Assembly (NCBI GenBank): GCA_026770705.1
Contig: JANJGN010000014.1
Span: 90,954,001-91,018,000 of the forward strand
From: Isurus oxyrinchus
Lineage: Eukaryota
Length of the DNA stretch: 64,000 nucleotides
Direction: 5' to 3'
A program made the translations under genes and the position numbers. Shown piece after piece: positions 8,575 through 40,442 of the stretch (the stretch's first letter is position 1; every line of letters begins with the position of its first letter). Below the pieces are notes generated by a model, which saw nothing but the letters and a program-made list of their open reading frames with translations, did not search any database and was not told where the DNA came from.

Positions 8575-8713
8575 AGAGTATGTCTACAGTCTGTCTAAAA
8601 AGCAAGTCCCCGCCTTGAGTCCACAGATAAGAAGGACCATTTTAGAACTTCTTAAAAATGCAATGCTTCCTTCCAAGGTGAAGGTGAGAATCAAGAAATC
8701 GCCCTCAGGGGAG

Positions 8714-9498: not shown

Positions 9499-9670
9499 AT
9501 CCTTAGTGAGTGGTGACGTTGGCATGCTTCTAGAAATCCGAGCAAGACTAGTTGATGCCCAGCATTTGAACAACACGACGTCCTTCATGGAACAATCTTC
9601 CACCTTTTATTTAGAACCAGCTGTCTATAGCAGCTGAGGAAGTCGACTCAATCTGGGGAAGATGTTAGCA

Positions 9671-10301
9671 AAGTGGTAATATCACTGGACTAGTAGTTAC
9701 AAGGAACAGCCTAATGATCTGTGGACAAAAACAAAAAATGCTGGAGAAAAGCTCAGCAGGTCTTACAGCATCTGTGGAGAGAAAGACAGAGTTAACGTTT
9801 CGAGTCTGTATGACTGTTCAAAAGAGTCATACAGACTTGAAATGTTAACTCTGTCTTTCTCTCCACAGATACTGTCAGACCTGCTGAGCTTTTCCAGCAT
9901 TTTTTGTTTTTGTTTCAGATTTCCAGCATTCGCAGTATTTTGTCTTTATCCTAATGATCTGTGGACATGGGTTCAAATCCCACCAGTGCAGCTGGTGGAA
10001 TTTAAATTCAATTAATAAATCTGGAATTATAAAGCAAGTCTCAGTAATGGTGACCGTAAAACTAGTATCAATTGTTGTAAAAAACCTATCTTGTTCACTA
10101 ATGTCTTTTAGGGAAGGAAATCTGCCATCCTTACTTGGTCTGGCATACATATGACTCCAGACCACACAGCAATGTGGTTGACTCTTAACTGCTCTCTGAA
10201 ATGCCTAGCAAGCCACTCAGTTCAAGGGCAATTACAGATAGACAACAAATGCTGGCCTTGCCAGCAATGACCACACCCCATGAAAGAATAAAGAAAAAAA
10301 A
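9671..10301 (+). mobile_element. tRNA-derived SINE, interrupted by a Penelope mini-palindrome
   Basis: A-box-like AGTGGTAAT and B-box GGTTCAAATCC; body shared with 25211-25554 and 40090-40442; 3' tail shared with the LINE at 29090-29525; A-rich end. Confidence 0.8.
9728..9949. mobile_element. Palindromic mini-insertion of two Penelope 3' ends
   Basis: Inverted arms centred near 9820; 18-bp TSD CCTAATGATCTGTGGACA at 9710-9727 and 9950-9967. Confidence 0.88.
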
Positions 10302-10363
10302 TACCAGTAAGTTGCCCTCTTTCGCAGAGACACCATCCACTAGACCCCAAGCAGATATTGAAG

Positions 10364-11422
10364 TGTAAAGTCCATAAGATATGAAAAAGATCACAAACTA
10401 TTTAAATCAAACCTTACATTTTTGCTTATTTTAAAGGTGGACCTTACTGAATTAAAAGAGGGCTGCTGTAGGTCACATGGTTCACAAGTTGGCTACAGTT
10501 TCTAAAAATTTCCAATAGCAATTACAGGACAAAACCTTAACTTTCATTCTTGTGGAATTTCACAGCTTTCATTGTGAGAACACATTACCAGGGACCAGCA
10601 GACAATTTGTCTCCCTAGCCTGGCCCTAACAAGGGGGAAGCCATTGAAACTCATTATACCTGTAGAGGCGCTAAAAACCACCATTTATCTCCTCAGGTGA
10701 ACAATGTATTTCGACCAGAGGAATATAAGCCACTTGTTAGCCTGCCACGAACTCAATGGGCAACATCACATGATCTAAGCTTCTAGCCTTTGGAAAGTTT
10801 TAATATTACATTTCTAGACTCGCAACTCAGTCTGCTGTTTAAACTCCAGCCTGAAAACATCAAAGCAGACTCCAGGCTGACCAATGGTCTGCATCAAATC
10901 TAAGCCTCCTCAAAACCTTTTCTCTGGAAGATTCCTACCATCGCCTGCTGAGCAGACCAAGTCCCTGTATACCAATGACATCCCATTGCATCACCATCAA
11001 CTTCAAAGGAATTCTGCAAAATCCTGCTTCAGCTAGCTGAACCGTAACTCCTCTGTGAAGGAACCCTCATTGGACTCTGACTTTCTGGACTTTGACAATT
11101 ACGTGAACTGATATCCACATCTGTGGTGCTTTCTCTTTTAAGTTATTCATAGTTGTAAACACTCCTTTTTACTATCTTCTTATTGTGTGCTTGTTTGTGT
11201 GTATGAAATTGTGACCATTCCCTGGGTTTGAATGTGTGAGTAAACTGTACTTCTGATTTAACCCTAAAAAGAGTTTGCTCCAAGTCACTTTAAAAATTGA
11301 CTCACAGAGGGCTCGGGGAAACACATCACAGCCTATTTCAAAAAATCAAAACACCACTGCTTACAGACAGATGCCGAAAACATAAAGGAGTTCAGTTTTG
11401 CATCCCTCCCCTGTCTGTAACA
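10364..11422 (+). mobile_element. Solo LTR
   Basis: TGT...ACA termini with a perfect 4-bp TSD GAAG on both sides. Confidence 0.72.
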
Positions 11423-13199
11423 GAAGTTAATCTCTCAATTCTTCATTGAAGTTAGACCAGAGGTAACGGATACAGAAGACACTGCAACAGATGGTGACCA
11501 TCCATAAGAAGACCTACTGGACCTGAATTTGCTCTTTCCAGAAGAAGCCATTGTAACACTGGGTGATCTGTTGGGGGATGAGGTCTTATAGGTTGGTCTG
11601 TCTTTGCAATCAATAGATACAACATACAAAGTTTCTGTTTTTTTTTTCAGAAGTTAGCTGTGCTTCCAGTGGTTGAGCAGCATTCAGATCTTTGCTCCAC
11701 CGAACCTACTAATGTATTGCCTAGTCTATCTCTTGTTGTTCATGAGGAGTATTCCAGAGAGAATGACTTGCCTGAGTCCATGTCAGAGTCCATAGAGGAT
11801 CATACTGGCAAAGAGCTGGTACGTTCCATGGGTAAAAGTCATGTGACACCTGTATTTCAGTCCTAACTGAATGTCTTCTTACCACTAGAGCTGTATGCCA
11901 GTACAAAAGCTGTGGCAGAATCTTTAGCACTTCTAAAGCTGCAGAATCCTGCACAACAATCTTGTCTCCAAGTTAATTGCCTACAGGAAGTTCATCCCAT
12001 TATAGAAGATGGTGCTGTCTTGTCTCCATATCTTCAGCAATTCTTCTCATTGCCCGGAGTGAAGCAGCGTAATACAGAGAAAAGTATAGCTCTCTTATAA
12101 CTGCCTACAGAAAATGTACTGTTCCTCTGAAGTATCACCGGGAAATCATCTCTTCATCTTTTCTTGAAAGGCTTACAGGAATTTAGTTGTTTTCTTTCTT
12201 CATCATTTATATTCCTTGAAATCTCAGATCTTCAATAACTTATCAATATTCTGTGCAGCAGTGAATGATACAGCTGTGACAGTCTTCCCTGGAGATGAAG
12301 ATCATCCCTCTTTTCCTGTGTGCTTCAAGGGAGCAACAAGTTCCTCAGAGTCCTGAGTTCTTCTCTTCTAGTCCGAGAGAGTCCAGAGGTTGATGCACTT
12401 CAGTCTTCTCTCTTGGATAAGTCTTTCATTGCAAAAGACTTATTGTCCTGGCAGTTCAGTCATCCTGAAACCTACACCTTCCAGCTGCTAAATTGCTGCC
12501 CCATTCTGACAAAGATGATGTACTTCAAGGCAAAGAAGAAAGCCCTCATGTTTCCAAGACTGCTTCCATAAGGGCCGAGAATAATGTGGGAGACTGAATG
12601 CTTCAGGACTCTGACTTGGGGAGGGGGAAGAGTAGGAGTTCGAATTGGGTAGAAGCTGTAGTTGTGAGAAGGGAGTTATAGAAATGCAATGTGAATAGCT
12701 AACGATATAGGGTGGAATTTTCTGTGCCCGTTGGTGTCAAGCATCATGGCAACGTGAGCAGACAAAACGGTAGGAAGGCCAAAAATCGGTTTCAAGACGT
12801 CGTGAAACCAGATTGCGATCGTCCACTTCACCCGTCAATGGCGGGCCACCTTTGCTGGACATCAGGAACTTAATTTTAATATATCTGCATAATACATCAG
12901 CCCTGCTCGCTGGAATCATCCCCCATGCCAAATGTACTGCCCACATCAGCGAGAAGAGACCCCAGTGCAGAACACGTTTTGACAAGTGTGATGTGCAGAA
13001 GTCGAGACTTACCTTACTCACATCGCAGGCATCCAAGGAGCAGAAGATGCTGGAGCCCTACAGCAACAGGACCCTGGAGGAACACATGGGTGGACTCAGG
13101 TGCACATGTCTCCGCCGTGAAGCAGCTCATGGAAGGTGGAAGGTCACCGTTGAGGGTCTGCTTCGGGACGTCAGTGTCTTGGGCATGATTTGCTACCGA

Positions 13200-14180
13200 T
13201 GATCGTCGACCGGGTGGAGAGGAAGGTCTAGCTGTGAGTGGGACAGGAAGGTGTACTGGGGGAATAGGTGAGGGATGGCGTGTGGTTGGGAGGGGGGAGT
13301 GATGGTGGCAGGGGAGTGAGGTTGGGAGGAGAGGTGAGTGTACGGGGGTGGAGGGTGTAACGGGGGAGTATGTGGCAACTAGGAAGATATGATTAAGGGG
13401 GGAAGAAGGAATAAGGGAAGGAGTTCAGATGGGGGAAGGAGTGGGGGGGGGAGGAGTTTGGAGGGGGAAGGGCTTCAGGTGGAGCAAGGAATTTGGAGGG
13501 GCAGTGATGAGTCCGAGGGGAGGAAGGAGTTCAGGGGGGGAATAGTTCTCAGGGGAGAAGGAATCCAGGGGGAGGAATGAGTTCAGGGGAGGAAGGGAGA
13601 AAGGAATCCAGGAGCAGGAAGGAGTTGTGGGGGAGGAAGGAGTTCGCAGGGGAGAAGGAGTCCAGGGGGAGAAAGGAGTCCGGGAGGGGAGAAAGTAGTA
13701 AGTGTGGAGGAAGGAGGAAGGGTGGAGGAAGGGGTATAAGTGGGGAAAGAATAAGGGAGGGATGTCCAGGTGAATGTGCAAAGGAGGGGTCTGTGGAGTC
13801 AATGACTGCCTCCTGAGGAGCGAAATGAGGGTGGGGGCGGTAGGAGGGAATGGTGTGAATTAGAAAGGATAAAGTGAGCCGGTAGGGTAGGAGGGTGAGG
13901 GTGCGTGGGTAGTGGTAGAAAGATCGGTTAGGGTGGTTGTTAGGGTCTCAGAGGCAGACACAGACCCTGGAGTTGGGAAGGAGTTGTTCGCGGAGATTAA
14001 TTTGGATGGGGGTGGGATTCTCAAGAAGATAGGGAATGTACATGTTCATCCGGACATCCCGGAAAGAAAAAGGGTTCTAGCTGGTAGGTGACAGTGGGGG
14101 AGGTAGAAGGTGATGCAAGCGGGGTGAACAGTGATGGTGGATAGGACATGGGTGACTGGGGGAGGGGAAAGGATGGGGGA
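13200..14180 (+). repeat. Purine/G-rich low-complexity tract with degenerate ~18-bp units (GGGGAGGAAGGAGTTCA-like)
   Basis: Units visible at about 13510-13690; strong G/A strand skew. Confidence 0.7.
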
Positions 14181-14639
14181 GTTAAAGACAAACTTCACCA
14201 GTACCACCTTGCAAAATCGAAAGTGAAAGGAGCCTCATGTTGGGTGGGAACAGGTGATGCATGGGACTGCGATGAGTGGGTGGGCGGAGATATAGATCAG
14301 CTCAGATGGACAACTGAAAGAGAACCCGGCAGGCAGCATTGAAAATGCTCGGGACATTGAGATGTGTGTGATGGAAGAAGGATCCGTGTTCATAGGAGAG
14401 TTCTTCCACGAGGCTCCAAAAAGGCTCTGCCACAGACACTTCTCCCTTCAGAGTTACTCGTGCTGCGTGCTGCTGAACTGCTAGTGGTGAGGTGAGGGTG
14501 GGAGGGATGCAGGGAGAGGACTCGCTGAGTCTGTCAACGAAGCTGAAATACACTGTTACACATTATTCAGTGAAAGTGAACATATTTTCAGATTATAAAG
14601 TGACAAAACCTGTTCACCTATGTGACCACTTATGATCAG

Positions 14640-16358
14640 AAATTTTTAGCTTTTCTAGGTCCACCACTTCTTCTAGGTGCTGCCCTGATATCCGCAGAAG
14701 GGTTGGAGACAGACGCTGCAATGGATGGCCCTGTTGCCTCTGATGACTTCGATGTGGGTCCTCTGGAGAGCCAAGGTCTTGGGAGCCCCGGCTTGCTTTG
14801 GTTGTCCTCCTGTGGGCCAGCTTCCCACTCTGCGGTGACAGTGGACAAGATTGAAGGGGGTCACAGACAAAGGGGACTCAGAGGGAGAGGGCAGCCTCTG
14901 AGATTCTGGTTGGATGATCCAGGGGTGTCCAGCTGCTGCTCCTCCTCCTTTTGAGTGTCTTATGGCCCCGGCCTGACTCCTTGAGGGGAAGGAGCACCTG
15001 TAGGAACGTCAAGGTGCCTGTTTCCCCCTTGCATTGCCACTGCAGGAGCTCACCCATAGCTACCACGATGAAGTGCAGGTTTGCATGCATCTGCACATTC
15101 TGCTGGATCAGGTTCTCCCATGGCATCTGCCATTCTTCCCATGGAGAACTCCATACGCAGACATGTAGACACCGCTTCATCAGAGAGTAGGCGGACACAC
15201 TCCTTCGACTTGCATGTCACCCTAATGGGGGCTTCCAACAGCTCTGCATGATGTTCCCGCGCCATCTGCTGACTCTCCACGATGAGGCGGAAGGCCGAAT
15301 CCAGAGGCTCGTCATCTGACTTGGACCTCACAGATGCCTCTTCCCCAGCAGTCCTTCGAATGCAGGGCAGTTCAGCTGAACTTGCCTCGTCCTGCTGTGG
15401 ACATGTGTTCATGCACTAGCCACCAAATTGTGAACTCGAGCCTGCTCTAAATCTAGGTCCCACCGAGGTGTGTGTCTCTGTGCTGGTGGAGGGTGTGGCT
15501 AAGTGCTGTGATGGGTCTTCCAGGCTGCTTATTTCCAGCTCTTCATTGGGGGTGGTATCCTCTTGGCTAGACATGCGGACCTGGATGGAGCTGAGGCAAT
15601 GGCTGGCTGGGGGTGGTTGGTCGCTTGGCAGAGCTTCCTGTGAACCTGAGATGATTAGTGCATGACAGCAGAGTCAAAAGCAGAAGAGAGAGCACTCACT
15701 GTTGCATTGAGAGAGGGATGATGTGGTGCAGGACCCTCTCATGCGTGTTCGCCACCGACCTCACTGTTGCTGCTGGCATGGTTCGTGTCCTCGCCAGCCA
15801 GCATGGTCCTCAAAGTGAGTGAGAGGCCTAATGTGGGCCACTCCACCCCAGGTCTGGGACCTTCTCCTGCTGCTGTGAGTCAGCTGTTCCTGCATGTAAA
15901 TAGACGGAAAGAGTGTGAGGAGGGCACATGGCACAGGAGTGTTTGTGTGGTGAGCAGAACTAGGGACAGGATGAGGATGCGAGCTCCAGAGAATATGAGC
16001 CTGATGGAGATGTGAGGGTGTGTGTGAGAGTTAGTGGTGTTATCGCTTGAGGTGTGAGATCCCTGTGGATGTGTGATGGGTTTGTGAGCATGAATTGAGT
16101 ATGATGAGAAGAGTGACTTACTCCAGCAGAATGGAAGAGATCATTCTTCCTCTTCTTGCACTGAGTGGCTGTGCTCTTTTTCAGGGAGTTGGCACTGACC
16201 ACTTTTGCTTCCCATGCAGGATTGGTGGCATTGCTTGCTGGCCTTCACCCAGAGCGGAGATAGAGGACATCGCGGCGGGCCTCCACTGCATCCAGTAGGT
16301 GCTTGAGGGAGGCATCGCAAAATCTGGAGGCAGCATGTTTCCTTCCTTTGGCAGCCAT
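14640..16358 (-). pseudogene. Harbinger Myb/SANT-like DNA-binding gene, spliced and decayed
   Basis: Exon 16358-16122: MAAKGRKHAASRFCDASLKHLLDAVEARRDVLY..SANSLKKSTATQCKKRKNDL, then GTAAGT donor; downstream low-complexity/coiled-coil exons. Confidence 0.8.
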
Positions 16359-16681
16359 CAGTTCACAGCAGCTCCCTATCCCTTGAAGAGTGCAAGCTCT
16401 TTGCAGGGCGGTCTTTAAATATGGCGCCCGGTTTACTGAAGACCTGATGTGACAGGTGGCAGTCAAGTGGGAGGATGCTCTGCCAGCGACCTGGCATGTT
16501 TCCTGGGAATGCATGATTAATGAGGCGGGATTGGGATGATATGGCGTGAAAAGCCACCATTGCCACCAGCGGGTAAATCATCTTTTTTCCCACCCACTAC
16601 CGCACTTAGTGCAACTCTGGGATGATTCTGCTCATTGTTTCACGTTGTTGTTAAAAAATAAATAGTATATTTCATGGGAGG

Positions 16682-16953
16682 TGTAGTATAAAGGGTTAAC
16701 GGAAGGGATATGTTAACATATGATATAGATGATATTTCACTGACATAAGTTAGTCAAGCGTTAGACTCACTCTCTCTCTCCTTCTAGGGAGAGAGAGAGA
16801 GAGAGAGAGGTTGGAACACCATGCCCAGGAGACTCTGTAACCTGTTCAGATGTAGTAATAATAAACAAGTGTTAAACAAGTACCAGAGTATGACTGTAGT
16901 CTGTCCAGTAGCCAAGTATCATGCCTCAAGTCTATGGATAAGAAGGATCATCA
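16682..16953 (+). mobile_element. LTR-like repeat, same family as 5372-8641
   Basis: TGT...TCA, internal AATAAA, preceded by GGGAGG. Confidence 0.65.
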
Positions 16954-17859
16954 GAACACAGTCTCCCTAAATTGGTGGTTCCTAACCCAAATGCTGCTGC
17001 TGTCAGTTTTGGAGAAAAATTTGTTGTATTGCTAGTCTTTGCATGCGTGACACTGTAGTTTGTGCAGGGTGAATGAACCCTGGGACACCATTCCACCATC
17101 ATCAGTTTTCCTTCAGATGCCAGTTTCATTCGGTTCCACAACATGCTTCCTGGCCTCTAGTCCAGTGACCACAGAGCTGCAATGCTGGGGTCAGCTGGTG
17201 GCAGAAACAGAGAGTTAGGAACCCAGGGTACATCAGAACTCAATGTTACAGCCGGGATGGGCAAAGCGCGCAGTTGATCTAGCCCCACTACTCCACAGGT
17301 CAGAACATTATTTTGAAAGTTTAATTTACTCACCAAAATAGCCAATTGTTTACCTTCACTCCTGGTACCCAGAATAAAAAACAAGCAAGGGAGCTAGAAA
17401 TGAAGGCTTTGGGAACAAGGCAGAATGGGGCATGGGAGCTGGGAGGAGGAACCAGGACTAGAGAGATGGAGGCAACTGGGGAATGGGGGCTTGTGATCAG
17501 CTGTTACATTTTGGAATGTTACATGATCAAATTGCAAGAAAACTCCAATCAGAGTTAGCAACCCAGCTTCATAGAACTTGGAATCCAACTATGTAGATAA
17601 ATGATTGCAATTTAGGGAAGGTAGCCACCCACCAGAAGTCTATTTTCTATACTAACTGACATCTTTACAGGAAACGAGTGTTTGGAAGCCTCTGGAATCT
17701 GAGTTTGCAGCCCAGAAACACTCAAGGACCCTCCAGCATTACAGCAATACAAAAGAAAATGTGCTCTGTTGAAGAATACTGCAGATAATAATAGAATGCA
17801 TATTTCTGTGAGTAGTCCAAGAGCAAAAATAAGGCTAACAGAAACTTAATTCCATTCAG

Positions 17860-20800
17860 ATGGATAGAAATTCAACTATGTTGATTTCAGGGAACTTGGA
17901 CACACCAAATGGCAGTTCTTCAGACATTGGTGAATTTGACCACCCTTGCAATGCAAGGTCTCGGACTTCCAACAAAATTGGATCTCTGTCCAATTCCTTA
18001 TTTGCTTTGCACAAACAGGTGAAAAGTCCAAGAAATTCAGCACAAGCACAACTTCTTGTGGCACTGGAGCAAGTACAATGCTACCTGGTAATGAGAGACA
18101 ACTGAGTGCATCTGCATTTGCAATATGCAAGCCAGGACGGTGCATAAAGATATAATCATACGCTGATAATATCAAAGACCAATGTTGAATTCTTGCTGAT
18201 GCTATTGGTGGAATGGCCTTATCCTCACTGAATAAACCCATTAATGGTTTATGGTTTTACACAATGGTGAAATGTTGTCCATGCAGATACTGGTGGAATT
18301 TCCTCACTCCAAATATTACTGATAAACCTTCCTTTTCTAGTTGAGAATAACCCTCCTTGGCTGCAGAGAGGGTTCTGGAGACATAGCAGATTAGCCTTTC
18401 TGAACCATTTTCCATTCGATATGATAACACAGTTCCCACACCATAAGGAGACGCATCACATGTTAATATTAATTCTTTTGACGGGTCGTAATGCACCATG
18501 AGTAATAGCTCTTTAACTTTCACAAAGGCTTCTTCTTATTGCGAATTCCATGACCAACAATGATTATTTCTTAACAAGTATAATGGTGCTAACACCGTTG
18601 ACAAGTTTGGCAAAAAGCAGCTGCAATAATTGATCATGCCCAAAAAAGACTTGAGTTCAGTTACACTGGACAGAGAGGGCACCTCTTAGATTGCCCTAAC
18701 TTTCTCTTCAACTGGATGCAACCCCATGGCATCCACCTGGTGACCCAGGTACATAATTTCTGGTGATTGGAATGTACGTTTCTCTTTCTTTAATCATACA
18801 CCGGATTCCAAGAACCTTCTTAACATCTCTTCCAGGTTGGCCAAATGTTCGGCGACAGTTGACCCTGTGATCAGAACATAATCTAGGTATGCTACTACTC
18901 GGAGAAGTCCTTGCAAAAGACTCTCCATTGTCCTTTGGAAGATTACGCATACAGACAATACTCCAAAGGATGGGTGGGTATATTGATACAAACCCTTGCA
19001 CGTGATGATGGCTCCATAATCTCTAGACGTGCTATCCAGCTCTAACTGTTGGTATGCATGGGTCATGTCCAGTTTGGTTTAGGATTTGCCTCCAGTTAGC
19101 TTTGTGTATAAGTCATCTATCCTCAGGATAGGATATCTAGTTTAGCTGCCTTGTTCATGGTCAATTTATAGTCCTCGCAAATGTGTAGAGTTTGATCAGG
19201 TTTCACCACAGGGACCGTGGACGTTGTCCATTCCAAAAGCTGGACTGGTTGGATGATGCCTAGCTTTTCTAAGTGGCACAATTCTGCATCCACCACCTCC
19301 TTTAGGGCATAAGGCACAGGTCTGGCCTTAAGGAAACGGGATATCGCCTGAGAATCTACATATATTTTTGTTTGCAAGTCTTTTAATTTTCCTAATTCAT
19401 CATGAAATACATTGTTGTATTTCCTTAGCAGTTCAGGAATTTCTCCTGTTCTCATGTGAAATATTTCAGAACAGTTGAGCTTAATTTTTTGTAACCAGTC
19501 TTAGCCCAGAAGACTAGGTCCTTCACCTGTCACTATAATCACTGGAAGCTGGACTGTCTGTTGCCTAAAGGACACAGGTACTGTGGCAATGCTCTTTACC
19601 TGTATGGAATCTCCAGTGTATGTCTTCAACTGAGCCGTTGTTCATTCCGGATTCAGTGACAGGTACCCTCATTTAGGTATTTAAATGTGTGCTCTCCCAC
19701 TACTGTAGCTGAGGCTCCCGTATCTACCTCTATTACTAGTGGCTTCCCATTCACTTGAATTGTGACGTTTATAGGTTTAGTTTTTACTGCTTTGACATTG
19801 TACAGGGAATAGATATCAGTATCAGCAGCTTCAGGTTCTGATATATTATTCACTTAAATCATTTTGATCTGCTGCCTTAAGGACTGTCTCGATTTCGGCC
19901 TGCATTGCTTTATTACGTGACCTTTCTTATGGCAGAAATGGCATTCTGCCTCCTTGAATCTGCAGGTTTCCGGTACGAAGTTACCACCACATCTATAACA
20001 GATTAACCTTGGAGTCACTGCTGAAATGTTTCTACTAGTTCTTTTCATTTTTCTAGCAGCAGAGATTGTCTCTCGCTTCGCTGCTGTGTTTCTGGCTTTT
20101 GTGCCAGACCCAGTGGTAGATTCCCACCCCACCTGAAGAATAGCGCCATGTTGCACATTCTGTAAAGCCTGCAAGTCACTTGCAGCATTTCCATGGCTAG
20201 TAATGTTTCCATGGCGCGCTTCAAATCGATGTTGACTTCTGCGAGTAAATAGCGCTGAATGGCGTCGTTGTGAACTCCACAAACGAATCGGTCCCATATC
20301 ATATCATTGAGTGTGTCTCTGAAGTCGCAGTGCTCAGTCAACTGCTTCAACTTCACTTTATAGGTTGCGATGGACTCTCCTGGAGCCCTTACTCTGCAGT
20401 TAAACTTAGATCTCTGCGAAGTTGGCTCCGACTGAAAATGTGTCTTCACGAGGTCTACTTATTCATTAAAAGATTTAGAATTCAAGGCCATCAGACTGCA
20501 GATGAGATGGTATGTCTTGCTACCACATACACTCAAAAGGATTGCTTTTTGCTTCTCCTCTGCAGTTATTTCATTCGCCACAAAATAAAAACCAAGGCGT
20601 TCTACACACTGGCTTCAGTCTTCCATAGACACATCATAAGGGTTGATTCTGTCTAAGAGTGATTCTGCTGAAGGCATGACTGGTTAGTATACTTGTCTTT
20701 TTTATCTTAAGAACTGATGTATTCACGTTCACAAAATGAGGTGCAGTGCCAGCGCTATTTTACCCTCGTCGCCAAATGTAATGACTTGAAGTACTGGACA

Positions 20801-20985
20801 AGTTTCTACTTGAAACAGATAACTTTATTACAGAGAGCTTTTCAGAAGCTACATGCTTGAACCAGGTTCTTGACCAGAAAACCACGCCCTCCGGATTACC
20901 CGTGCTTAGGGCTCATTTGTCAGAGTCTCCAAGAACAATCACGTGACCCCTAATAGGCAGTAGGAAAGGCTAGACCTTCAATCAC
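17860..20985 (-). mobile_element. Gypsy LTR retrotransposon (Mag-type), 3'-truncated and decayed
   Basis: Gag (FNCRVRAPGESIATY..DRFVCG), double Cys/His knuckle (CYRCGG..CHFCHKKGH..C), protease VDTGASATV, RT YLD(Y)VLITG, RNase H CDASPYGVG..YSQLEKE..ADALS. 5' LTR from 20777; its outer end is approximate. Confidence 0.9.
20762..20774 (-). promoter_or_regulatory. Primer-binding site, tRNA-Ser(GCU)-like
   Basis: Minus strand reads ..TACA TT TGGCGACGAGGGT, directly inside the LTR end. Confidence 0.75.
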
Positions 20986-21335
20986 TGTATTCTCCTTCCC
21001 CCATTTTGTGTTGCTTTGTCCTTTCCTTTTGCAGTTGTTTTTCTTTATCCTTAGTTTGTGTTTCTCTCTCCTTCCATTCTAGTTTGTTTCTGTCTCCCTC
21101 TGCTTTGTTTACTCTCTCAGGACTCATGGAGTTTCCAGACAATTTTTATTCATACCACCATCCTCACAACCAGCAATTAAGTGGTGTGTTCAGGTAGGGA
21201 TAGGACATTGCAATTTAGCTTCAAACTGCAATAACCAGTGTTCTGCATGTGCACGAGCCATGCCTATAGGGGATACCTTCTCCTAAGTCATCAGCAGCAG
21301 TTAGGAGACCAATCATCAATTTCATTAGATTCTAG

Positions 21336-22563: not shown

Positions 22564-22864
22564 ATGTGCATCTCCTCCATGACCACCCAAATTAAAAGAA
22601 AACTCCCGCCAAAGGAGGGAGGGTTAGGAACCTTATTAATTCTGGAAATGAGTTCTTTCTGCCATGTAAAGATGAAAATCTGGATCTGTTTCATGATTCT
22701 GCACTTTTGACTTTTGTCCCATTCATATATGTGAAATGCAGGTATTCATCAAGTCAAAGGGGAGGATAGAGGAGTTAATATTTAAATAATGCTCAACTTT
22801 GAAGCTTGGATTGTATTCATGCTAGAAGCTTCAAGTTGCCTCTTATAGTCAAGTTTACACGAGG

Positions 22865-24762
22865 ATGGTCTGATGGCTCTCCGCTTCTTCCTCGAACAGA
22901 GGCCCGAGCAATCCCCATCCACCACTACTCTCCTCCGTCTGGCTGAACTTGTTCTCACACTGAACAATTTCTCTTTTAACTCCTCTCACTTCCTCCAAAT
23001 AAAAGGTGTGGCTATGGGTAGCCGCATGGGCCCCAGCTATGCCTGTCTCTTTATGGGGTATGTGGAACCTTCCTTGTTCTAGTCTTACTCCGGCCCCCTC
23101 CCACAACTCTTTCTCCAGTATATCGATGATTACTTCAGTGCTGCTTCATGCTCTCGTCGGGACCTGGAAAAATTTATTAATTTTCCTTCCAATCTCCAGC
23201 CCTCCATCATTTTCAAATGGTCCATCTCTGACACTTCCCTTCCCTTTCTTGACCTCTCTGTCTCAATTTCTGGTGATAGACTGTCCACCAATATCCATTA
23301 CAAGCCTACCAACTCCCACTGCTACCTTGACTACAGCTCCACACACCACGCTTCCTGTAAGGACTCCATCCCATTCTCTCAGTTCCTTCGCCTCCATCGC
23401 ATTTGTTCTGATGATGCCACTTTCAAAAACAGTTCCTCTGACATGTCCTTCTTCTTCCTTAACCGAAGTTTTTCACCCATGGTGGTTGACAGGGCCCTCA
23501 ACTGTGTCCGGCCCATCTCCCGCGCATCTGCCCTCACGCCTTCTCCTCCCTCCCAGAAATATGATAGGGTCCCCCTTGTCCTCACTTATCACCCCATCAG
23601 CCTCCGCATTCAAAGGATCGTCTTCCGCCATTTCCGCCAATTCCAGCATGATGCCACCACCAAACACATCTTCCCTTCAACCCCCCGGCGGCATTCCGTA
23701 GGGATCGTTCCCTCCGTGACACCCTGGTCCACTCCTCCATCACCCCCTATTCCTCAAACCCCTCCCACGGCACCTTCCCATGCAATCGCAGAAGATGCAA
23801 CACCTGCCCCTTAACTTCCTCTCTCCTCACCGTCCAAGGGCCCAAACACTCCTTTTCAAGTGAAGCAGCATTTCACTTGTACTTCCCTCAACTTAGTCAA
23901 CTGCATTCGTTGCTCCCAATGCGGTTTCCTCTACACTGGAGAGACCAAACGCAGACTGGGTGACCGCTTTGCAGAACACCTTTGGTCTGTTCGCAAGCAT
24001 GACGCAGACCTCCCTGTCGCTTGCCTTTTCAACACTCCACCTTGCTCTCATGCCCCACATGTCTGTCCTTGGCTTGCTGCATTGTTCCAGTGAAGCCCAA
24101 CGCAAACTGGAGGAACAGCACCTTCCGACTAGGCACTTTACAGCCTTCCGGATTGAATATTGAGTTCAACAATTTTAGATCATGAACTCTCTCCTCCATC
24201 CCCAACCCCTTTCCGTTTCTTCCCCCTCCTTTTTGTTTTTTCCAATAATTTATATAGATTTTTCTTTTCCCACCTATTTCCATTATTTTTAAATGTATTT
24301 CCACCATTGTTAATCTCTACCTTTTAGCCCTTTTAGTATTCTTTCACCCCACCACCACTAGAGCCATCTGTACCTTGTCTGTCCTGCCTTCTACTCTTAA
24401 TTAGCACATTCCTTTAGATAATATTAACACCTTCAACACCTCATTTGTCTTTTTGTCTGTGACATCTTTTGCTTATTTCCACCTATTACTGGCTGCTTGT
24501 CGCAACAACCCCCTCCACCGCACCCCCCACCCCCCCCCCCCCCACCCCCCCACCCCCGCCCCCCCCCTTCACCCGGCAGCTTAAACCAGCTTATATATCA
24601 TCCCTTTCTTATTTTTACTTAGTTCTGTTGAAGGTTCATAAGGACTCGAAACGTCAACTGTGCTCTTCTCCGCCGATGCTGCCAGACCTGCTGAATTTTT
24701 CCAGGTATTTCTGTTTCTGTTTTTGTTTTGGATTTCCAGCATCCGCAGTTCTTTGCTTTTAT
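22865..24762 (+). mobile_element. Penelope-like element, 5'-truncated (RT core to 3' repeat)
   Basis: KGVAMGSRMGPSYACLFMG, YIDD (TATATCGATGAT), GIY-YIG remnant, hammerhead-like motif at 24621-24659. Confidence 0.92.
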
Positions 24763-25210
24763 CTATTGCACAAGAGGTGCTTCAGTTTTTGTACAGCTTC
24801 TTGTAAAACCTTTCATTTTGATTCAAACATTGCACATATTGATTTGGAGTGCAGTAAATGTTTTGTATCACAGCAATGTGATACCTTAGCATTCCCACTG
24901 CATTCCAAGCATCTCTTCCATTTTCCTTAGATAGTTTTCTTCTAGTGCCCTCTGATTGATCCTACATTAGTATGAGAGTTTTATAGCAGTTTGTTTATCT
25001 AGAAAACTGGAGGGATATGAAACAAATTTAAGAAAAGCCAAATTTAATAGAGAGTAGGAATTAAGCCCAGTAGGACCAAGGGCAATGAAGGTTGTTTTAC
25101 TCTACCTTCAAATGTCTCCATGAAAAAAGTTAAGTGTTATTGATTTACTGCACTTACAGGCTAAACTATAGCTCCACTTGAATGTCCGTTACCAATGCAA
25201 TCACTGCAGG

Positions 25211-25554
25211 TCGATAATGTCACTGGATTAGTAATCTAGAGGCCCAGGATAATGGTCTGGGAACATGGATTCAGATCCCACCACAGCAGCTGCTAGAATT
25301 TAAATTCAAGTAATAAATCTGGGTTATAAAGCTGATCTCAGTAATAGTGACCATGACACTATCATTGTTTGTCGTAAAAACCCCTCTGGTTCAGTAATGT
25401 CCTTCAGGGAAGGAAATCTGCCATCCTGATCAGGTCTGGCCTACATGTGACTCCAGATACACAGCAATGCAGTTGACTTTTAACTGCCCTCTGAAATGGC
25501 AAAGCAAGCCAAGCAATGGCAGTTAGGGAGGGGCAGCATTAAAGAATAAAAAAA
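25211..25554 (+). mobile_element. tRNA-derived SINE
   Basis: Collinear with the SINE at 9671-10301. Confidence 0.75.
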
Positions 25555-25599
25555 TGTCAGCAAGATGGCAAACAAAGTATCCCATTTGTGATGGGATAG

Positions 25600-25862
25600 T
25601 CACAAATAAATTCAACAGGAATTCAGGAGAAACTTCTTTATCCAAAAACTGGTTAGAATCTGAAATGGGCTACCAGAAGGGGTGGTTGAAATGAATGGCA
25701 TTGATGCACTTAAAGAAAAGCTCAATAAGTATGTGAGGGAGAAAGTAATAGAGGAATATGTTGACGGGGGTAGATGAAGAGGGGTGGAAGGATGCTTGCA
25801 TGCAGCATAAATGTGAGCAATGACCAGTTGGGTCAAATGGCCTGTTTCTGTGCTGTAGATTT
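25600..25862 (+). mobile_element. CR1 3' end fragment
   Basis: CR1-type ORF2 tail and 3'UTR ending GGCCTGTTTCTGTGCTGTA. Confidence 0.65.
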
Positions 25863-26662
25863 AATTTAACCATGAATATTAATATGGATATATACAAGGC
25901 AGTGCATAGGGGAATAGGAAACCTGAGTCACAGAAATAGAAGCCCATTAGCATACATTAAAAGGGAAAATTTTAATTATTGAATACCCACTGAAATATCT
26001 AGTCAATATGTAGCTGTCGACAATCTGGCCAACAAAATTCTGAGATGCATCTTGAATGTTCTTGGTTACAGGACCAAACAATTCAATCCTGTTTGACCCA
26101 TTGCTCAGATTATACAGGCCATGGTATACCAGTCTGTGAGGAATACTGTTTTGCTCCCAAGTAGCTTAATATGTATTTTGGTGCATTATATGCATGTAAT
26201 TTCATATTAAGAAATCACATCAGTCTCCAGACATTACCAATTTGACACATTTTCAAGGACGTTTAAACCCTTGCAACTTTCAACAAATTTTCTGTCGCTA
26301 ACAGCATACAAACTGCCAAAAAGCCTAAATGCATAGCTGAAACTTCTCACCTTAAGCCAGATAGTCAGATAAAACAGACTTCAGCACATTCTAGTAACAT
26401 TCCAATGTACTGATATCATTTTACAGAGGCAGTTGCTAGACAACAGTAGAATGCCATTTAATATTTGTCATCCTTTTTGTTTTTTTTGTTTCCCTCTATA
26501 GTTTCTCTTTACCACACATCTCCTCTGCATGAGGGATCAGGCTATAAATCTCAAAAGTCTCCCAATCTTGAATGCTGGAAGGTGAGAGTACCACCTTAGA
26601 AACTGCCTGTTCTTCCCATATTTCTGCTCCCCAGCTTCACCATGGCTGGTGCTGGGAACGTC

Positions 26663-28539
26663 ATGCAGGATTTTGCTGGCCAAATGGGGTGGGAGGCAGG
26701 CAGGCACACAAAGTTAGTATTCTGATGGTCAATGATTTTGCTGAGTGAGGGGGTCAGGTCTCGGCAACCCGCCTGATTTGGAGCAAAGATCAATTTAGCC
26801 TGTTAATGAACTTACTGTTAGCTTGTTAAGGACCAGTCTGCAATTTTCATGCAAAGACATGGGAGGCATGCTGGATCTGGAACAGGCCAAGTGGAAGGAG
26901 ACAGCAATGCAGCGGGGAGCCAGTTATGGCCACATCATTCAGTGAGATGGGCTAATAAGAGGGCACATAGTTGATGGCTATGTCTGTCCTCCAAGGGGGA
27001 ATGCCTACAGCTGCCTCTGTCTCTCTCAACTCCTATTATTCATTCATGATGCACTGTTCAATCAGTGCCACTGTTTTCAATCTTGTGCCAGGACCCACCA
27101 ATGTGAATGTGTGAATGCATCTGCGCTGGTGGAGGGTGTGCTTGAGTGATGCGATGTTGCTGGGTCTATAGATTTTATGTTGTCTGAAGACCCCTGAGAT
27201 GCTGCAGTAGCACTGGCATGCTCCCCCTCCTCAACTGGTCCTGTGGGAGGCATAAGAAAGAGAGCATGAGAATTCATCTCTAACAGCTGATGCCTCTGCA
27301 CACTTGAGGGTCCCCAATATAGCTGAGGTTTTGACATGCTGTTAGATGAGGAGGAGTGCACTTCATCCCTTTAATCTACAGAATTCAATATCTTTTTCAC
27401 CCTCTCCCACAAGTATTCTCATCTATTCATTGTCCAGTTACTTATGAGATGCCTCTTGCTAGATGTCAAGTGCTGCCTCCAGTGGCACTCCCCATGCGTG
27501 TGCCCTCTCCCTTACATTTTGTACCTTCTTCCCTGTCTTCAGGTACCAGGAACTTCTGTGTTGGTCCATGGTTATGTTTGCAAGTTACTGTAGTGATTTG
27601 CCTTTGCCTTCTGCAGATGACTGACCAGCAACCTCTCCCACTCTTTTGCCTGCCATTGCTGTATGTTGGAAGGATTTACAAGTTTGTACTCAACTTGTTT
27701 GGCTGTGTTATGAACACACTTTTCTTGGCCATCATGTCCGGGCATGGGATTTGAACCTGAGCTTCTGGTTCAGAGGTAGGGGGTACTACAAGACCTCCTT
27801 ACCTTCTTCTACAAGGACAAAAGAGAGAGAGAGATAAAGCAATGCTCGCCTCGGTCACCAATTCCAGCTGCACACTTAACTAAGATGCTACGTTTATCAG
27901 TGCTGCCAGCTCCTCATTTGCACTAGGGCTTTAAGCCTTACTGATGGCTTTGAGCCTTGCTGACAGGTCAGTAATTGCTCTGGACACATATTTCTCCCAT
28001 GTTCTGGAGGACCAGATGACCTCAGGCTCTGTTCCAAAGAAGAGTCATATTGGATTCAAAATGTTAACTCTATTTCCCTCTCCACGGATGCTGCCAGACC
28101 TGTACTTTCTGTTATTAGCTCAGCTGGTATGTCTGCTGGTAGCTGCAGACGTGGAAGCCCTACATCTGGATGTCCCATTGCACTCACTTTGCCAGAACAA
28201 AGATGGTCCTTAAACATCTGATGGTACTGCACCCAAGTTCTCCTCATGATACTGCAGCTGCCCACATGCTCTGCCACTTCCAGGCAGACCTGTTTGATTC
28301 GAATGGTTATCCTTCTCCTGCCAGTCTCTAGGAGCAAAATCCCTTACCTTTCTCACACAGCTTCCAGCATGACCTCAAAGCTGGCATCAATAAATCTCGG
28401 GGCCGCCCTCCCATGGATGCCTGGCCTCTGCCTTAGCTCCTCTTCACTTCTGCATGCCATTGCATTGTAAGATAGTTGCCATAATAATGGTTGCGTCATC
28501 CTTGGAGAAGGGTCCAAGATCCATTGCAAAATCCTGCCC
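26663..28539 (-). mobile_element. Old, internally deleted Harbinger element with a Myb/SANT-like exon
   Basis: TIRs GCAGGATTTTGC / GCAAAATCCTGCCC. About 28185-28460 encodes RAAPRFIDASFEVMLEAV..CLEVAEHVGSCSIMRRTWVQYHQMFKD. Confidence 0.72.
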
Positions 28540-29089
28540 TCCATTTGTGGAGTTCCTTCATGGCAAAGTCCATGTGGTTTTATGCTTTGGCTCCAAATGA
28601 TTCAATGCCATGCAACTTCACTTTTTTGTTTGTCATTTTAATGCTGCTCTTTTTTTCCCCCTTTTCCCACCATTCTCAGCTCAGCCTGCTGACGTGGAAT
28701 CATTTGGCACAGAAGGAGGCCACTGGCCCACCGTGCCTGTGCTGGGTCTTTGAAAGAGCTATCTAATTAGCTCCATCCCTTGTTCTTGCCTAAAATGTTG
28801 TCAAAATATGTACTTTGTGAAATGTCAAACTTTTACATCAAAGCCTCTTCCTTCAGGTATGGGTGAAATGGCCGTGGATGCTCAGTTGCTTAGTATATTC
28901 AAGACACATAGAAATAGGTTTTTGGACCCCAAGGCAGAAGGCAGAAGTTTGAAGGACTTTGTAATTGAGATTGATGACATATATGCTGAGTTGATTGCCA
29001 AGCCAATTTGTAAGATCTGTCTTAGTTGTATTTGCCATTTGATGTGAATAGCTAGGCATGCCAAAAGAGTTCACTAAAGTGAACTATGA

Positions 29090-29525
29090 TGAAGCAGCTT
29101 GCTTGATTGGCATCACATCCACAAACATTCACTCCCTCCACCACTGATGAACAGTGGCAGTAGTGTGTACTATCTACAAGATGCACTGCAGGAACTCACT
29201 GAGACTCCTTAGACAGCACCTTCCAAACCCACGACCGCTACTATTTAGAGGGACAAGGGCAGCAGACACATGGGAACACCACCATCTGGAAGTTCCCCTC
29301 CAAGCCACTCACCATCCTGACTTGGAAATATATCGCTGTTCCTTCACTGTCACTGAGTTAAAATCCTGGAACCCCTTCCCTAACAGCATTGTGTGCATAC
29401 CCACACCACAGGGACTGCAGCGGTTCAAGAAAACAGCTCACCACCACCGTCTCAAGGGCAATTAGCGATGGACAACAAATGCTGGCCTAGCCAGCGATGC
29501 CCACATCCCATGAATGAATAAAAAT
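29090..29525 (+). mobile_element. 3' end of a non-LTR retrotransposon sharing its tail with the local SINE
   Basis: ORF remnant VAVVCTIYKMHC..SWNPFPNSIV..LQRFKK; tail GGGCAATTAG..AAATGCTGGCCTAGCCAGCGATGCCCACATCCCATGAATGAATAAAA. Confidence 0.75.
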
Positions 29526-31926
29526 AAACACATTTTAACAAAAGTGCCCAGACTGTAAACCAGGGCTGTGTTGATCAGTAGAAAAGTAACTCTGGGAAGC
29601 TACGTCATCAGGACTGTTGTCATGAGGGGGAGAGGGCTCGTAGAAGGAAACCGTGTCAGTATTAATCATATCCAGGGACCTCAGATGGAAGCAACTCGAG
29701 AGCCAAATCCATTGAGTGGGAAATGTGAGAGTTGGAAAGACTGAGACTGCATACGATGTCGCTTTTGTGCAAGGAGTGATGTGAATGCTTGTAATTTTAT
29801 GAGACCTATCTTTGTTGTATTGATTATTTGAAGAGAAATTCATCATTTCTATTGAAATACCATTTATCTGTGCTTAATTTTATATGGATTTTAGGTTTGA
29901 ATGTTACAGTAAAAGTTCTAAAAAGTGAAATCTTGTCCATCGATTCCTTGTGTCAGGAGATCCCTTTCTCTTCAAGCTATTGGTCCCTATGGGTATCATA
30001 ACATTGTTAATGGCAATTGCTCCATATTGTGTTCCTTTTTCCTCTAAACACAAACTGGAAAAAGCAACATGAAATGCACAAATAGATGCATTATTTTTTC
30101 TTCTTCTTTGCATATATTTTCGTGTTTCTTTTAAGGCTGGAAAACTTTGGCTACATCAAGGTGAGGTAAGCGAGTTATGGATAATGGAAAACAGAAAATT
30201 TCCTTAATGTCAGCAGCACACATTCTTTGGGCAGGTATAGCGCTGGTTAAACACGGATTGGTACACTGCTTCAAAATCATAAAAAACCCTTTGTGTGCTG
30301 TTTTCTGTTTTCCACATTGGTCATCCCAAACTTTGGATGGTTCCAACTGTGGTTTAAGTGAGATTTGTGCTGAATGAGGTGCAATTTTATGCTGTTTTAT
30401 CACATCTACTAGGAATCAATTTGAGAATTTTTTTAATGTAGCTTCTTTCAGGTCAGTATCACACATCAGCCTAGAGAACTGGCAAAAGTTGATATATGTA
30501 CCTCAGGCCCTTCCCTATTAAATTTTGATTTTGAAGCTTTATTTCTTGAATTTTGAAGCCTATTGAAATTCTGCCTTTCAAGTTAAAACAATGGTAGAGC
30601 GGCAATCAGAGTCAAATTGCCACTTCGCTCCGAGTTACTTACCTGGAAGTCCAACAACTCCTTTCTTGCCCGACCTTTGGAGTCAGGCCGGGCGAGAACT
30701 GTGTAGGGCAGCCGCTCCTGAGGCCTTCAGTCGAGGGCTGGAGAGTCAGAGGTAAGGAAGCTATACCCTCTTTTTTCCAGCACTAGCTGCCATAATGCAG
30801 GTAAGTCTGGGGGTTTCAGTCAGTTGGTGGATGGGAGGGGTGGGAGTTGGTCAGTGGGAGTTAGCACGAGAGTTACCCAGGTGTTAGAAGTGGTTTTAAT
30901 TCTTCTAGCTTTTCCTGAGGAACTATTACTGTAAGACAGTAGGAACCATCCAAAGTTTGCTATTAATATCATACTTTTTGGATGGTTCCGATTGCCCAAC
31001 TGAAGTTTGAACTTCCCAGATAGTTGCTGGGCAATCCTTACCTGGGGCCTTCAGGGGTGGGGTGGGAAGTGGGGGGCATGGGGAAGTGGGGGTTCCCCAG
31101 TGCATCCCGAAATTATGACACCAGGAAGCTCGGAAGTTACGGACCATTTTCTCTGCACAGGTTAGATACTTACAAAATAAAATTTAAATAATTTGTTCAG
31201 AATTCAATACCATTTCACAAGTTTGAATATGGCTAACACCAGATACATCATGTTAATTTACACACTATAATCTTACACTACACAAACCTATAATAATTTC
31301 CGCCAATATTGCAAAATTGGCACACTATCACAATTGTCCGAGTGGGTGAGTCACCATCACTGAAACATATCCATAGAAATTAACTCTAATGAAGTTGTTT
31401 CCATACATAAACCTGTTTTTAACTCTTTCAAAAACAATTGCACCCTACAATCATTTCAAAAAGACTAAAATGCTCAAAAATGTATTGGGATGAATTTTAT
31501 GCACTTGGTTGGACCAGACTGATTAACTCAAGTCTAGAGTTTGCAACATGTTATACTTTTATTGATTTTTATTGTCACTTCTCAAATTTTCCCATTGACT
31601 TTGACCACTATAATACGGATTGTGCAGATTTTCTTCTCAGTCACTGTTTGATAACAAACAGACCGCCATTATGAACATGTAAACAAACTGAAAATCTCTT
31701 TCAGTTACAGAAGATAGCCCAATATTATAAACCATCCACAAAAAAACTGCTCACAACATACATCGTGGTCATACACTGTAGTAAAATCTTAAATATGGTG
31801 ATGTCAGCATAATGATTTAAAGTAAAATTAATTACCCATTCGCATATTTCCAACCATACTACCTGTTTTATTTCTAAAGGCTGATAATTCTACATCTGCA
31901 TTGACAGGTATGTTCATATAAAGCTA

Positions 31927-32072
31927 AAAGCAAAAAACTGCAGATGCTGGAAATCCAAAACAAAAATAAAAATACCTGGAAAAACTCAACAGGTCTGGCA
32001 GCATCTGCGAAGAGGAACACACCACAGATGTTGCCAGACCTGCTGAGTTTTTCCAGGTATTTTTATTTTTGC
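31927..32072. mobile_element. Palindromic mini-insertion of two Penelope 3' ends
   Basis: Inverted arms; 14-bp TSD TTCATATAAAGCTA at 31913-31926 and 32073-32086. Confidence 0.88.
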
Positions 32073-34609
32073 TTCATATAAAGCTATTTGGTGTATTCAT
32101 GGCAAAACAAGATCTGCAACTTAATTTCAACTTATACACAGGAAAACTGTCAGGTGTGCTCTAGGGAGTTCCTTTCAGGAAGATTAGAATATTTTAAAAG
32201 TTGGATTTATTTAGTATGTTTTTGAGGATAAATACTAAGCAAAAGCATTTACAATTGCAAGTCTTAGAAACCATTGGATAGTCTGAAAATGTTTTTATCT
32301 GAAGTTTGTGCACAACCAGCAGGAGGAGAAAGTGACATGCAGGAGAAGTGTGCTTCTACAAATTCTCATTTTCATTATCTAATCAATCTAATTGATTCAT
32401 GCTGACAACTTCCAATCCCAGTGAAAAATGCTGATTTTCTTCATACATTGTAACCTCTCCAGTCCAATTCGGAAACACCAGTTGTCCAGAAATTTTTTGA
32501 CCAGACCGAAGCATTCCTTCGACATCATTGGCATCACTTTAGTACAGTACTTTGAAAGCAGAAATACAGAAGATACAGTATTTGGATAGTAAAACAATTT
32601 TCATTACTGCCTTATAATGTTTCATCACTGTTTTATGTTTCAAGTAACTGTTTATATATTAGTTCACATTCTTGTGGTTAGGCAATCTATTCTCATTCTA
32701 TAATTCAGAAAATTCCAAAATCAAGAAATTATTTGGTCCCAAGCATTATGGACTGAAAAGTTTACAGTGGCACTCTGGCAAGCTGTCATGAATTAAAACA
32801 TTGGGCATCATATTAAAAAGTCTATGATGTCATGTCTGCACAAATTAACACCTGTGCCACTCAATCTTTTGTCAAGTTACTGTACTTCATACTTCTTCCC
32901 TTGGCTGTCACCAATCTCCAGCTCTTGCTTTTCTCCCTCTTCATTACATTAATCACGACATGGGAAAATGATTACCAACTTCCCTTGAACAGAGAAAATC
33001 TTCATTCCAGTGATCATTTTACCAGTATCTTTTACGGTCTAGTTATCTTGCACTGCAGGTTACTGTTCAGGTTACTTCATTCCTTTATTCATTATGGCTG
33101 CAGTAATATCAACATCTGAACATACAACAGTGATGGACAGGAAAAGGTCCATCCAGTTTCTCCCAACTACTGCAATGCCTTGTGCATCACGCTGTATACA
33201 AGGCAACTCACCTGAAAACCATGTAAATCTCCTGGGAGATTGTATGAGTTTTTTTAGTCAAGCCTGTACTTCGCATGACTGAAAATTTGTTTATCTATAG
33301 AATATCTGGGATAACATGCCAAGGGGTGAATAATGAATTCTTATACCATTAGGTTATTCTATTCAAATTGTGTAGGACTTCAACATATAATCTGATTTCT
33401 TGAAGTAGAAAAGCACAATTGGAACAATAAAACTCAGGTTAAAATTAATTAAAATTTAGCCTAAATTTTTTTTACAGAGTAAATTATCAGATTACATGGC
33501 AATGCATTCATTCATTAATTAGTACATTTCAAAGTTTTGTTTTGAGTTCAGCATAACAACTTGCATCAAGATTCTTAGGTCTTTTTCCACCCTCGCTCCC
33601 AAATACTTAACTAATGCATATACTAGATACGCACCAAGCCACGATAGTGTTCCAGTTCACTGTTGTGACATGAAGCTATATGGATGAATCACATGGAGCT
33701 GCATTTAACGCACCGCACCCCTGGGAGTGGGTTGGCAGGTGGGCGGAGGAATGTAAAAGTGGGCACAATGGCGTGGGCGCTATTCCCAGCACCCACCTGC
33801 CTGCGCCTTCCCACACTGCAATGTTACACATGGCAGGGATGGCATCAGAAAGGCCACCCACCCACCTGCAGGTCATCTGAGGCCCTTACATGGTCAATTA
33901 ACAGCTATTTAAGGGCCTCCTGATCCCCACTACAACTGGTCCCCTGTCAGGCGGAGATTGGTGCTAAGTGTGAAGTCCAGCAGCATTCATTATCCGGGCT
34001 GATGGCAGGAGGGGGCACTCTCCTTTATGGCACCGCCCAGGGCAATTAGAGGCCCCATCCATAGTCTTCCTTCTAACCTTGGGTTTGCCCACCCTTCCCA
34101 GCCTGTCCACCATGGCCTCCCAAACCTGCCAGCCTGGCCATGGAAATACTAGGCTACACCAACCCCACTTACCTTGGTGTCCGGCTCCAGAAATGATTGC
34201 CTTTAAGGACTGGATGCAGTCCCAGCAGTGACCCTGAGACTAAAGAGCTTCTGGCCATTTGGTTGGCATGCAACTCTGAGGCGGGACCGCCTCCCCAGAT
34301 GGAGGCAGAAGTCTCACCTCAAGCCACACAAACTGGGTAGGCTCACTCCAAACAGTTACACCAGAGGGGCAAGGACACCAGCTGAGCTTAAAATAATAGC
34401 CTTGAATTAAATTATTTTTAATCCTAGACGAAGATGTGCATTCGATTCAGAATTACTCTTTCTTCTAACCTTGGGTTTGCCCACCCCCCCCCCCCCCCCC
34501 CCACCCCCCCCCCCACCCCCCCCCAGCCTGTCCACCATGGCCTCCCAAACCTGCCAGCCTGGCCTTGGAAATACTAGGCCACACCAACCCCACTTATCTT
34601 GGTGTAAAA

Positions 34610-40089: not shown

Positions 40090-40442
40090 CTTTTTTTTAT
40101 TTGCTCATCACTGTCTAGGTCAGCATTTATTGCCCATCCCTAATTCAATAATTGTTTAGAGGGTATTTAAGTTTAAGAGTCAACCACATTGTTGTGTGGT
40201 CTGGAGTCACATGTAGGCCAGACACCATAAGGGCAGCAGATTTCCTTCCCTAAAGGGCACTAGTGCCCTAGATGGGTTTTTATGGCAATTGGCAATGGTT
40301 TCACAGTTGTCATCAGACTTTTAATTCCAGATTTTTATGGAATTCGAATTTCACCATGTGGTGGGATTCGAACCCGGGTCCCCAAAGCATTACCCTGGGT
40401 CTCTGGGATAGACGTCAGTGACAATACCACCATGTCACCACC
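40090..40442 (-). mobile_element. tRNA-derived SINE
   Basis: Reverse complement of the SINE family, with GGGATTCGAACC B-box. Confidence 0.78.

Follow-up and report, generated by a model that had tools for sequence, protein, structure and literature searches.

Inverted pseudo-long terminal repeat (pLTR) insertions of Penelope-like elements (PLEs) are described as having target-site duplications (TSDs) and a tail of 30-40 bp at one end (PMC8557442, PMC3846280). In A. vaga Pen2a, a 31-bp tail is found on one inverted pLTR and the TSD is 9 bp (PMC3846280), and a 34-bp repeat and a pLTR promoter are reported for D. virilis Penelope (PMC2377424). In the case of PAc, a Poseidon element of Anolis carolinensis (Frangieh 2024, PMC11167929), reverse transcription starts in vitro at two adjacent internal sites that bound the genomic tail, with the main start 85-92 nt after the hammerhead cut; the protein, for which a dimer is predicted, cleaves and extends both target strands in vitro. 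How inverted copies form after the first priming is described as still unvalidated (PMC11167929, PMC8557442). The minimal hammerheads of PLEs occur mostly solo, and some form pairs with 100-700 bp between them and the two members on opposite strands (Cervera and de la Pena 2014, PMC4209133). Tails are not mentioned in the accessible part of a further source (bioRxiv 10.64898/2026.07.22.740005). Here we compare with these systems a PLE found in a 64-kb stretch of the Isurus oxyrinchus genome (contig JANJGN010000014.1, positions 90,954,001-91,018,000, forward strand), which is the DNA analysed and is called the window below.

Self-comparison of the window and a profile search located the end of this element at eight loci (A-H). 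Three of them, A, B and C, are head-to-head inverted pairs that have both 3' ends pointing outward and are flanked by exact repeats (coordinates are those of the window):

5575-8574: insertion A, 3000 bp, TSD of 15 bp with copies at 5560-5574 and 8575-8589.
5575-7196, minus strand: long tailed arm of A, a 5'-truncated PLE with the reverse transcriptase (RT) thumb, linker, GIY-YIG endonuclease (EN), 3' untranslated region, hammerhead motif and tail.
5575-5618, minus strand: tail of A, 44 nt, or 38 nt if one 6-nt repeat unit is ascribed to slippage.
7196-8574, plus strand: short tailless arm of A, ending in the internal T tract, with its open reading frame (ORF) split across two frames; 98.0% identical to the long arm.
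9728-9949: insertion B, 222 bp, TSD of 18 bp with copies at 9710-9727 and 9950-9967, the left copy lying within a dispersed short repeat.
9728-9815, minus strand: short tailless arm of B, with a 3-nt microhomology to the TSD at its outer end.
9816-9949, plus strand: 9-nt centre of ambiguous strand and tailed arm of B, with the tail at 9911-9949.
31927-32072: insertion C, 146 bp, TSD of 14 bp with copies at 31913-31926 and 32073-32086.
31927-32021, minus strand: tailed arm of C, owner of the central spacer, with the tail at 31927-31959.
32022-32072, plus strand: short tailless arm of C.

As a control, windows of 40 nt were paired at random; in 4,986 such pairs, no word longer than 11 nt was shared. 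The TSD word of A occurs once in a paralogous repeat (16885-16899), and that of B is single in all three of its paralogues in the window; no empty site for C or for locus D was found among window paralogues. Since the host-repeat paralogues hold the duplicated word only once, the TSDs of A, B and the solo copy G are genuine. The arms match each other at 1340 of 1367 positions in A, 79 of 83 in B and 45 of 49 in C, whereas identity among the three insertions is 78-88%; as the centres and targets also differ, A, B and C represent three separate events. These asymmetric inverted insertions are thus real, and an earlier sequence-only reading of the window described them accurately: its coordinates and its TSD lengths of 15, 18 and 14 bp are exact, the empty sites back A and B, and its view of three independent insertions, each with one arm full to the terminus and the other stopping in an internal T-rich tract, agrees with the arm comparisons.

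Two of the host sequences belong to repeats of the window. The dispersed repeat hosting A (5372-5570 plus 8575-8640), whose second copy at 16682-16951 is the source of the empty site, is 73% identical between the two copies. The dispersed short repeat that hosts B has four copies, 75-82% alike (9660-10215, 25205-25511, 39252-39419 and 40173-40455), and is presumably SINE-like (short interspersed nuclear element).

The tailed arm exceeds its partner by 44 terminal nucleotides in A, 39 in B and 33 in C, so that the one-sided deficit noticed earlier holds, while the figure of about 40 nt given for it was loose. The short arms stop in the internal T tract, 9 (A), 7 (B) and 4 (C) nt ahead of the conserved landmark GATTTCCAG. 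Three ends falling within 5 nt have a post hoc P of ~0.009 under a uniform 100-nt null, or 0.03 under a T-biased null; if the 6-nt slippage in A and microhomology are allowed for, all three fit positions -4 to -3. Microhomology at the short ends amounts to 0 nt in A, 3 nt in B and 0-2 nt in C, and B, C, F and G show ~1-4 nt of it at their tailed ends. An intact TSD abuts each short arm, and its end was therefore fixed at insertion. This, together with the clustering (P 0.009-0.03), speaks against chance or a post-insertion deletion of one end, an explanation that could appeal to the small number of cases (three) and to the slippage of T tracts seen as repeat-unit variation, and that the abutting TSDs already go far to refute; we regard it as the least credible of all those considered.

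The other copies of the element in the window are the following:

41941-42108, plus strand: D, decayed palindrome, with a tailed arm at 41974-42108 and an inverted remnant of ~33 nt at 41941-41973 that lacks the outer end.
22858-24764, plus strand: E, solo 5'-truncated tailed copy with the RT motifs QxKGxAMG and YIDD; no TSD was found in its flanks.
55279-56603, plus strand: F, solo 5'-truncated tailed copy with an 8-bp TSD (55271-55278 and 56604-56611).
60297-60442, minus strand: G, solo 146-bp copy running from the hammerhead motif to the tail, with its 5' end at AGTT, a 6-bp TSD and an empty site at 54284-54289.
~28029-28123, plus strand: H, decayed solo short copy whose 5' end lies at helix I and which either lacks a tail or has a decayed one.

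All seven recognisable tailed ends (A, B, C, D, E, F and G, of which E, F and G are solos) stop at the same terminal T-rich motif. The tailless end was found in the three palindromes and possibly also in the solo H, where the match runs through the T tract (16 of 22 positions, post hoc P ~0.005) and is ambiguous beyond it. Locus D had been put forward as a possible fourth, partial case. A tailed arm and ~33 nt of an inverted arm are indeed present, but no outer end is left and no TSD above 7 bp was found at this locus, and D was not scored as a fourth asymmetric case. A later deletion may have taken its left end together with the TSD; the window holds no paralogue of the site. The flanks of D (41500-41950 and 42110-42340) resemble a decayed 3' end of a long interspersed nuclear element (LINE), the left flank translating into a LINE-like C-terminus, perhaps CR1-like.

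Copy G sits in one of two direct repeats of ~900 bp (54225-55149 and 60232-61141, 87-90% identical), the other of which provides its empty site, and F lies between them. The repeats flank minus-strand ORFs at 56945-58723 with Pfam matches to RT/RNase H-like and integrase zinc-binding domains; together they are probably a decayed long terminal repeat retrotransposon.

A conserved 7-bp RNA stem (GAUGCUG/CAGCAUC) was observed in seven copies of the element (at 5575-5680, 9850-9949, 31927-32018, 42012-42110, 24658-24764, 56500-56607 and 60303-60402). It closes a loop holding the proximal end site, and the distal site lies just 3' of it. None of 17 pairs in the seven copies was compensatory. By analogy with the PAc stem-loop, the stem could be a protein-binding element.

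A coding remnant of the element lies in the long arm of A:

6147-7196, minus strand: open ORF remnant of 349 aa, with the RT C-terminus, a CX4CXXC-type linker and GIY-YIG EN with CxxC.

It matches 77 homologues (E 3e-99 to 4e-13, 25-59% identity), most of them annotated with RT, and the nearest named proteins come from cartilaginous fishes (58-69% identity), consistent with a shark or ray as the host. The GIY-YIG Pfam match of the remnant itself is weak (E 0.07, under the cut-off); the homologue P0002 carries both RVT_1 and GIY-YIG. Several features place the element among the EN+ PLEs: (i) RT is followed by a C-terminal GIY-YIG domain in one ORF, (ii) a CIRCSQC segment, which lies between the VY and CIG motifs and has His residues downstream, corresponds to the CCHH motif of EN+ PLEs, two Cys of which lie within the GIY-YIG core (PMC8557442), and (iii) the insertions show an inverted 5'-truncated copy, a variable TSD and a one-end tail. 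The linker that separates RT from EN reads CPRKRCNTC in the short arm of A (the last Cys is altered in the long arm) and has the CX2-5CxxC form that marks Neptune and Nematis (PMC8557442). Judged by its motifs, which are of Neptune/Nematis type, the element is a Penelope-like retrotransposon of the EN+ kind. No full-length or tandem (direct pLTR) copy is present in the 64-kb window. The frame that appears open at the tail of E has stops in A, F and G. By analogy with PAc and D. virilis Penelope, the position that the sequence-only reading called the 3' terminus probably lies within a read-through RNA of tandem copies. A scan of non-eukaryotic genome contigs with the element returned one locus, a chance 21-nt bacterial match without further similarity.

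The three insertions share with the known PLE tail systems (D. virilis, A. vaga Pen2a, PMC8557442 Fig. 2) the head-to-head 5'-truncated inverted copy, the variable TSD and the one-end extension of 30-40 bp. They differ in that the tail of 33-44 nt lies between U-rich tracts, the TSDs are 14-18 bp long, and the insertions B and C measure just 146-222 bp. PAc resembles the present element in having two sites that bound the tail and lie below a minimal hammerhead with an identical GAAACGUC segment. Thus, the two end positions taken earlier as two defined priming/termination sites are supported, but they do not constitute a new rule: the asymmetry and the two-site idea are already in print as the known PLE tail and its in vitro explanation by two start sites, and our main result adds little beyond the tail rule in a Neptune/Nematis-type element.

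With the TSDs, the empty sites, the independence of the events, the two end positions and the PLE identity established, we interpret A, B and C as ordinary head-to-head (inverted-pLTR) PLE insertions made from two initiation sites used from two target ends, a reading to which we assign a probability of about 0.6. The GIY-YIG endonuclease would cut the target with a stagger of 14-18 nt, leaving a 3'-OH on each strand. RT could start at either of two U-rich sites, which are separated by 33-44 nt and lie ~100 and ~140 nt downstream of where the pLTR hammerhead motif begins. Starting at the distal site would extend one target end into the tailed arm, and the proximal site would join the other target end, most simply via a second priming, to give the tailless arm; the two 5'-truncated cDNA ends would then be joined centrally, and gap filling would create the TSD. 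The geometry read from the sequence is that each target 3'-OH end becomes joined to an element 3' end. We infer that the end of the short arm marks initiation and not termination. Two initiation sites are favoured because of the in vitro precedent and because of H which, if it is a tailless solo, means that the proximal site can initiate alone.

In L1 twin priming, both nicked target strands prime and a TSD-flanked inversion results, the arms of which are non-overlapping parts of one RNA. In A, B and C, by contrast, both arms copy the same 3' region.

Several observations weigh against our interpretation. The clear solos E, F and G are all tailed (3 of 3), H being ambiguous, and only three palindromes, all from one window, could be scored. 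PAc belongs to the Poseidon clade and starts at an AC-rich stem-loop with no target homology, whereas the present element has a CX4CXXC linker and U-rich sites with 0-4 nt of microhomology. A tail inside the 5' end of the ORF was sought by tblastn with 171 homologue N-termini, which gave only scattered weak matches, none of them convincing and many on the wrong strand. Finally, the centre belongs to the tailed arm in A, C and D. In A, the 210-nt central spacer (6986-7195) belongs to the long tailed arm and is collinear with copy E and RT homologues. The centre of B scores both ways (21 vs 16 when compared with H, 14 vs 22 with F) and was left out of the ownership count.

This last polarity is required by fold-back self-priming and not by independent dual priming. 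In the fold-back scheme, target-primed reverse transcription takes place once, from the distal site. The resulting cDNA folds back at its 3' end and is copied on itself; this DNA-templated strand ends 33-44 nt before the start is reached, owing to a protein footprint or to slippage in the T tract, and then switches to the other target overhang, which makes the T tract a termination site. It fits the polarity of the centres better than dual priming does, since the ownership in A, C and D (3 of 3, one-sided P = 1/8; the other arm of D could not be scored) has no clear counter-example, and the arm junction of A contains a mini-hairpin, GAAGC-G-GCTTC, of the kind of junction palindrome that PMC3846280 interprets as self-priming; a comparable 4-nt snap-back match occurs by chance at 2.8% of element positions. 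Against it stand the PAc sites, both of which are initiation sites in vitro and are used on either strand (PMC11167929), the statement that the unit has its tail 'at either end' (PMC8557442), the possibility that H is a tailless solo, and the short end of A, which has no microhomology. We consider fold-back a serious but unlikely route. The window alone cannot decide between dual priming and fold-back, as both predict the same junction sequences. The dual-priming integration proposed by the sequence-only reading is in this sense plausible and has an in vitro precedent, but its wording went beyond the data. The family is dense (eight loci in 64 kb, three of them with exact long TSDs), and genome-wide counting would be a cheap test of the two schemes.

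Another way to obtain one tailless arm would be that both arms are full length at first and EN removes one tail when it resolves the intermediate. Such resolution is named as the likely cause in PMC8557442, and the EN of D. virilis requires the tail for recognition, as cited in PMC11167929. Later in vitro work, however, puts the tail between RT start sites (PMC11167929), and the short ends scatter over ~5 nt, with microhomology in B and perhaps in C; we find this explanation improbable.

The short insertions B and C also recall MITEs (miniature inverted-repeat transposable elements) in being short, TSD-flanked and hairpin-forming, with folding energies as DNA of -92 and -50 kcal/mol, respectively, and could in principle form a family of hairpin units moved by a DNA transposase. 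Unlike MITEs, the insertions have TSDs of 15, 18 and 14 bp, ends that differ by 33-44 nt and a retroelement origin, and no repeated unit, nor a second copy of any centre junction, occurs in the window. Identity between B and C is 81-85%, neither their centres nor their lengths agree, and the 3-kb copy with RT and EN has the same design. A transposase-borne family is accordingly very improbable, and the earlier label of MITE-like hairpins is apt for the shape alone.

Further features were predicted in the pLTR region, upstream of the two end positions:

8474-8512, plus strand: minimal type-I hammerhead-like motif, with the predicted cut after 8508.
8442-8447, plus strand: TATA-like motif, located 29-32 nt upstream of the AGTT with which hammerhead helix I opens; a consensus match with a putative promoter function.

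The hammerhead descriptor matched six of nine stretches, with 87% of cells paired. None of 11 pairs was compensatory, and Rfam gave no hammerhead match, only generic hairpin matches below the gathering scores. The core is CUGUCGA-like in A (8484-8490, plus strand), E and G, and the canonical CUGANGA is kept in D and F. As in the minimal PLE hammerheads of PMC4209133, there are short solo and inverted pLTR fragments with the motif, a bulged nucleotide before helix II and palindromic positions 15.2/16.2; the non-canonical core of A, E and G sets the present motif apart. The TATA-like word is present in all three copies long enough to hold it (both arms of A, E and F).

Numbered from the A that opens helix I (+1), positions +33 to +35 hold the predicted cut, ~+101 to +107 the end in the internal T tract and +143 to +146 the terminus, which puts the two element ends ~66-72 and 108-111 nt past the predicted cut. 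Four of the five short copies begin between +1 and +5 (G at +1, B and H at ~+2, D at +5); such a cluster within 5 nt has a post hoc P of 0.0015 under a uniform 100-nt null. The start of G adjoins 3 nt common to its TSD, and that of B stands under either reading of its centre. The fifth copy, C, has its 5' end ~3 nt downstream of the predicted hammerhead cut, a single case.

The start cluster, small as the numbers are, suggests run-off from an RNA 5' end at the transcription start, so that B, D, G and H would be run-off products. Run-off at this point would place the tail sites near the RNA 5' end, as in PAc. In the accessible part of PMC4209133, the 5' ends of short copies are not linked to a transcription start. 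An alternative is that the cluster reflects a 3' splice acceptor (pyrimidine tract and AG) at the same place; in D. virilis, helix I is where an intron ends (PMC4209133). A fuller scheme, which we put forward tentatively and hold to be possible rather than probable, is that the RNA starts at the first base of helix I, ~30 nt below the TATA-like box, and RT primes at ~100 or 140 nt within this RNA and then runs off its 5' end, yielding the solos G and H (100-150 bp) and the mini-palindromes B and D, with C coming from a hammerhead-cleaved template. The distal site would serve the first strand, the arm always owning the centre, and the proximal site would close the second junction. If site use is ordered in this way, genome counts alone would separate dual priming from fold-back. 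The start cluster, the start of C and the ordered site use with centre ownership were not found in the open-licence literature, and Fig. S2 of PMC11167929 may already show relevant end histograms; the cluster and the centre ownership of the tailed arm, both resting on small numbers, thus appear as possible additions to what is published.

The remaining repeats of the window are a purine-rich degenerate tandem array at 13382-13735 with a period of ~18, an inverted pair at 16013-16627 and 38193-38807 (68% identical), a direct pair at 61980-62420 and 63257-63696 (75%), and a short palindrome at 4-46, at the start of the window.

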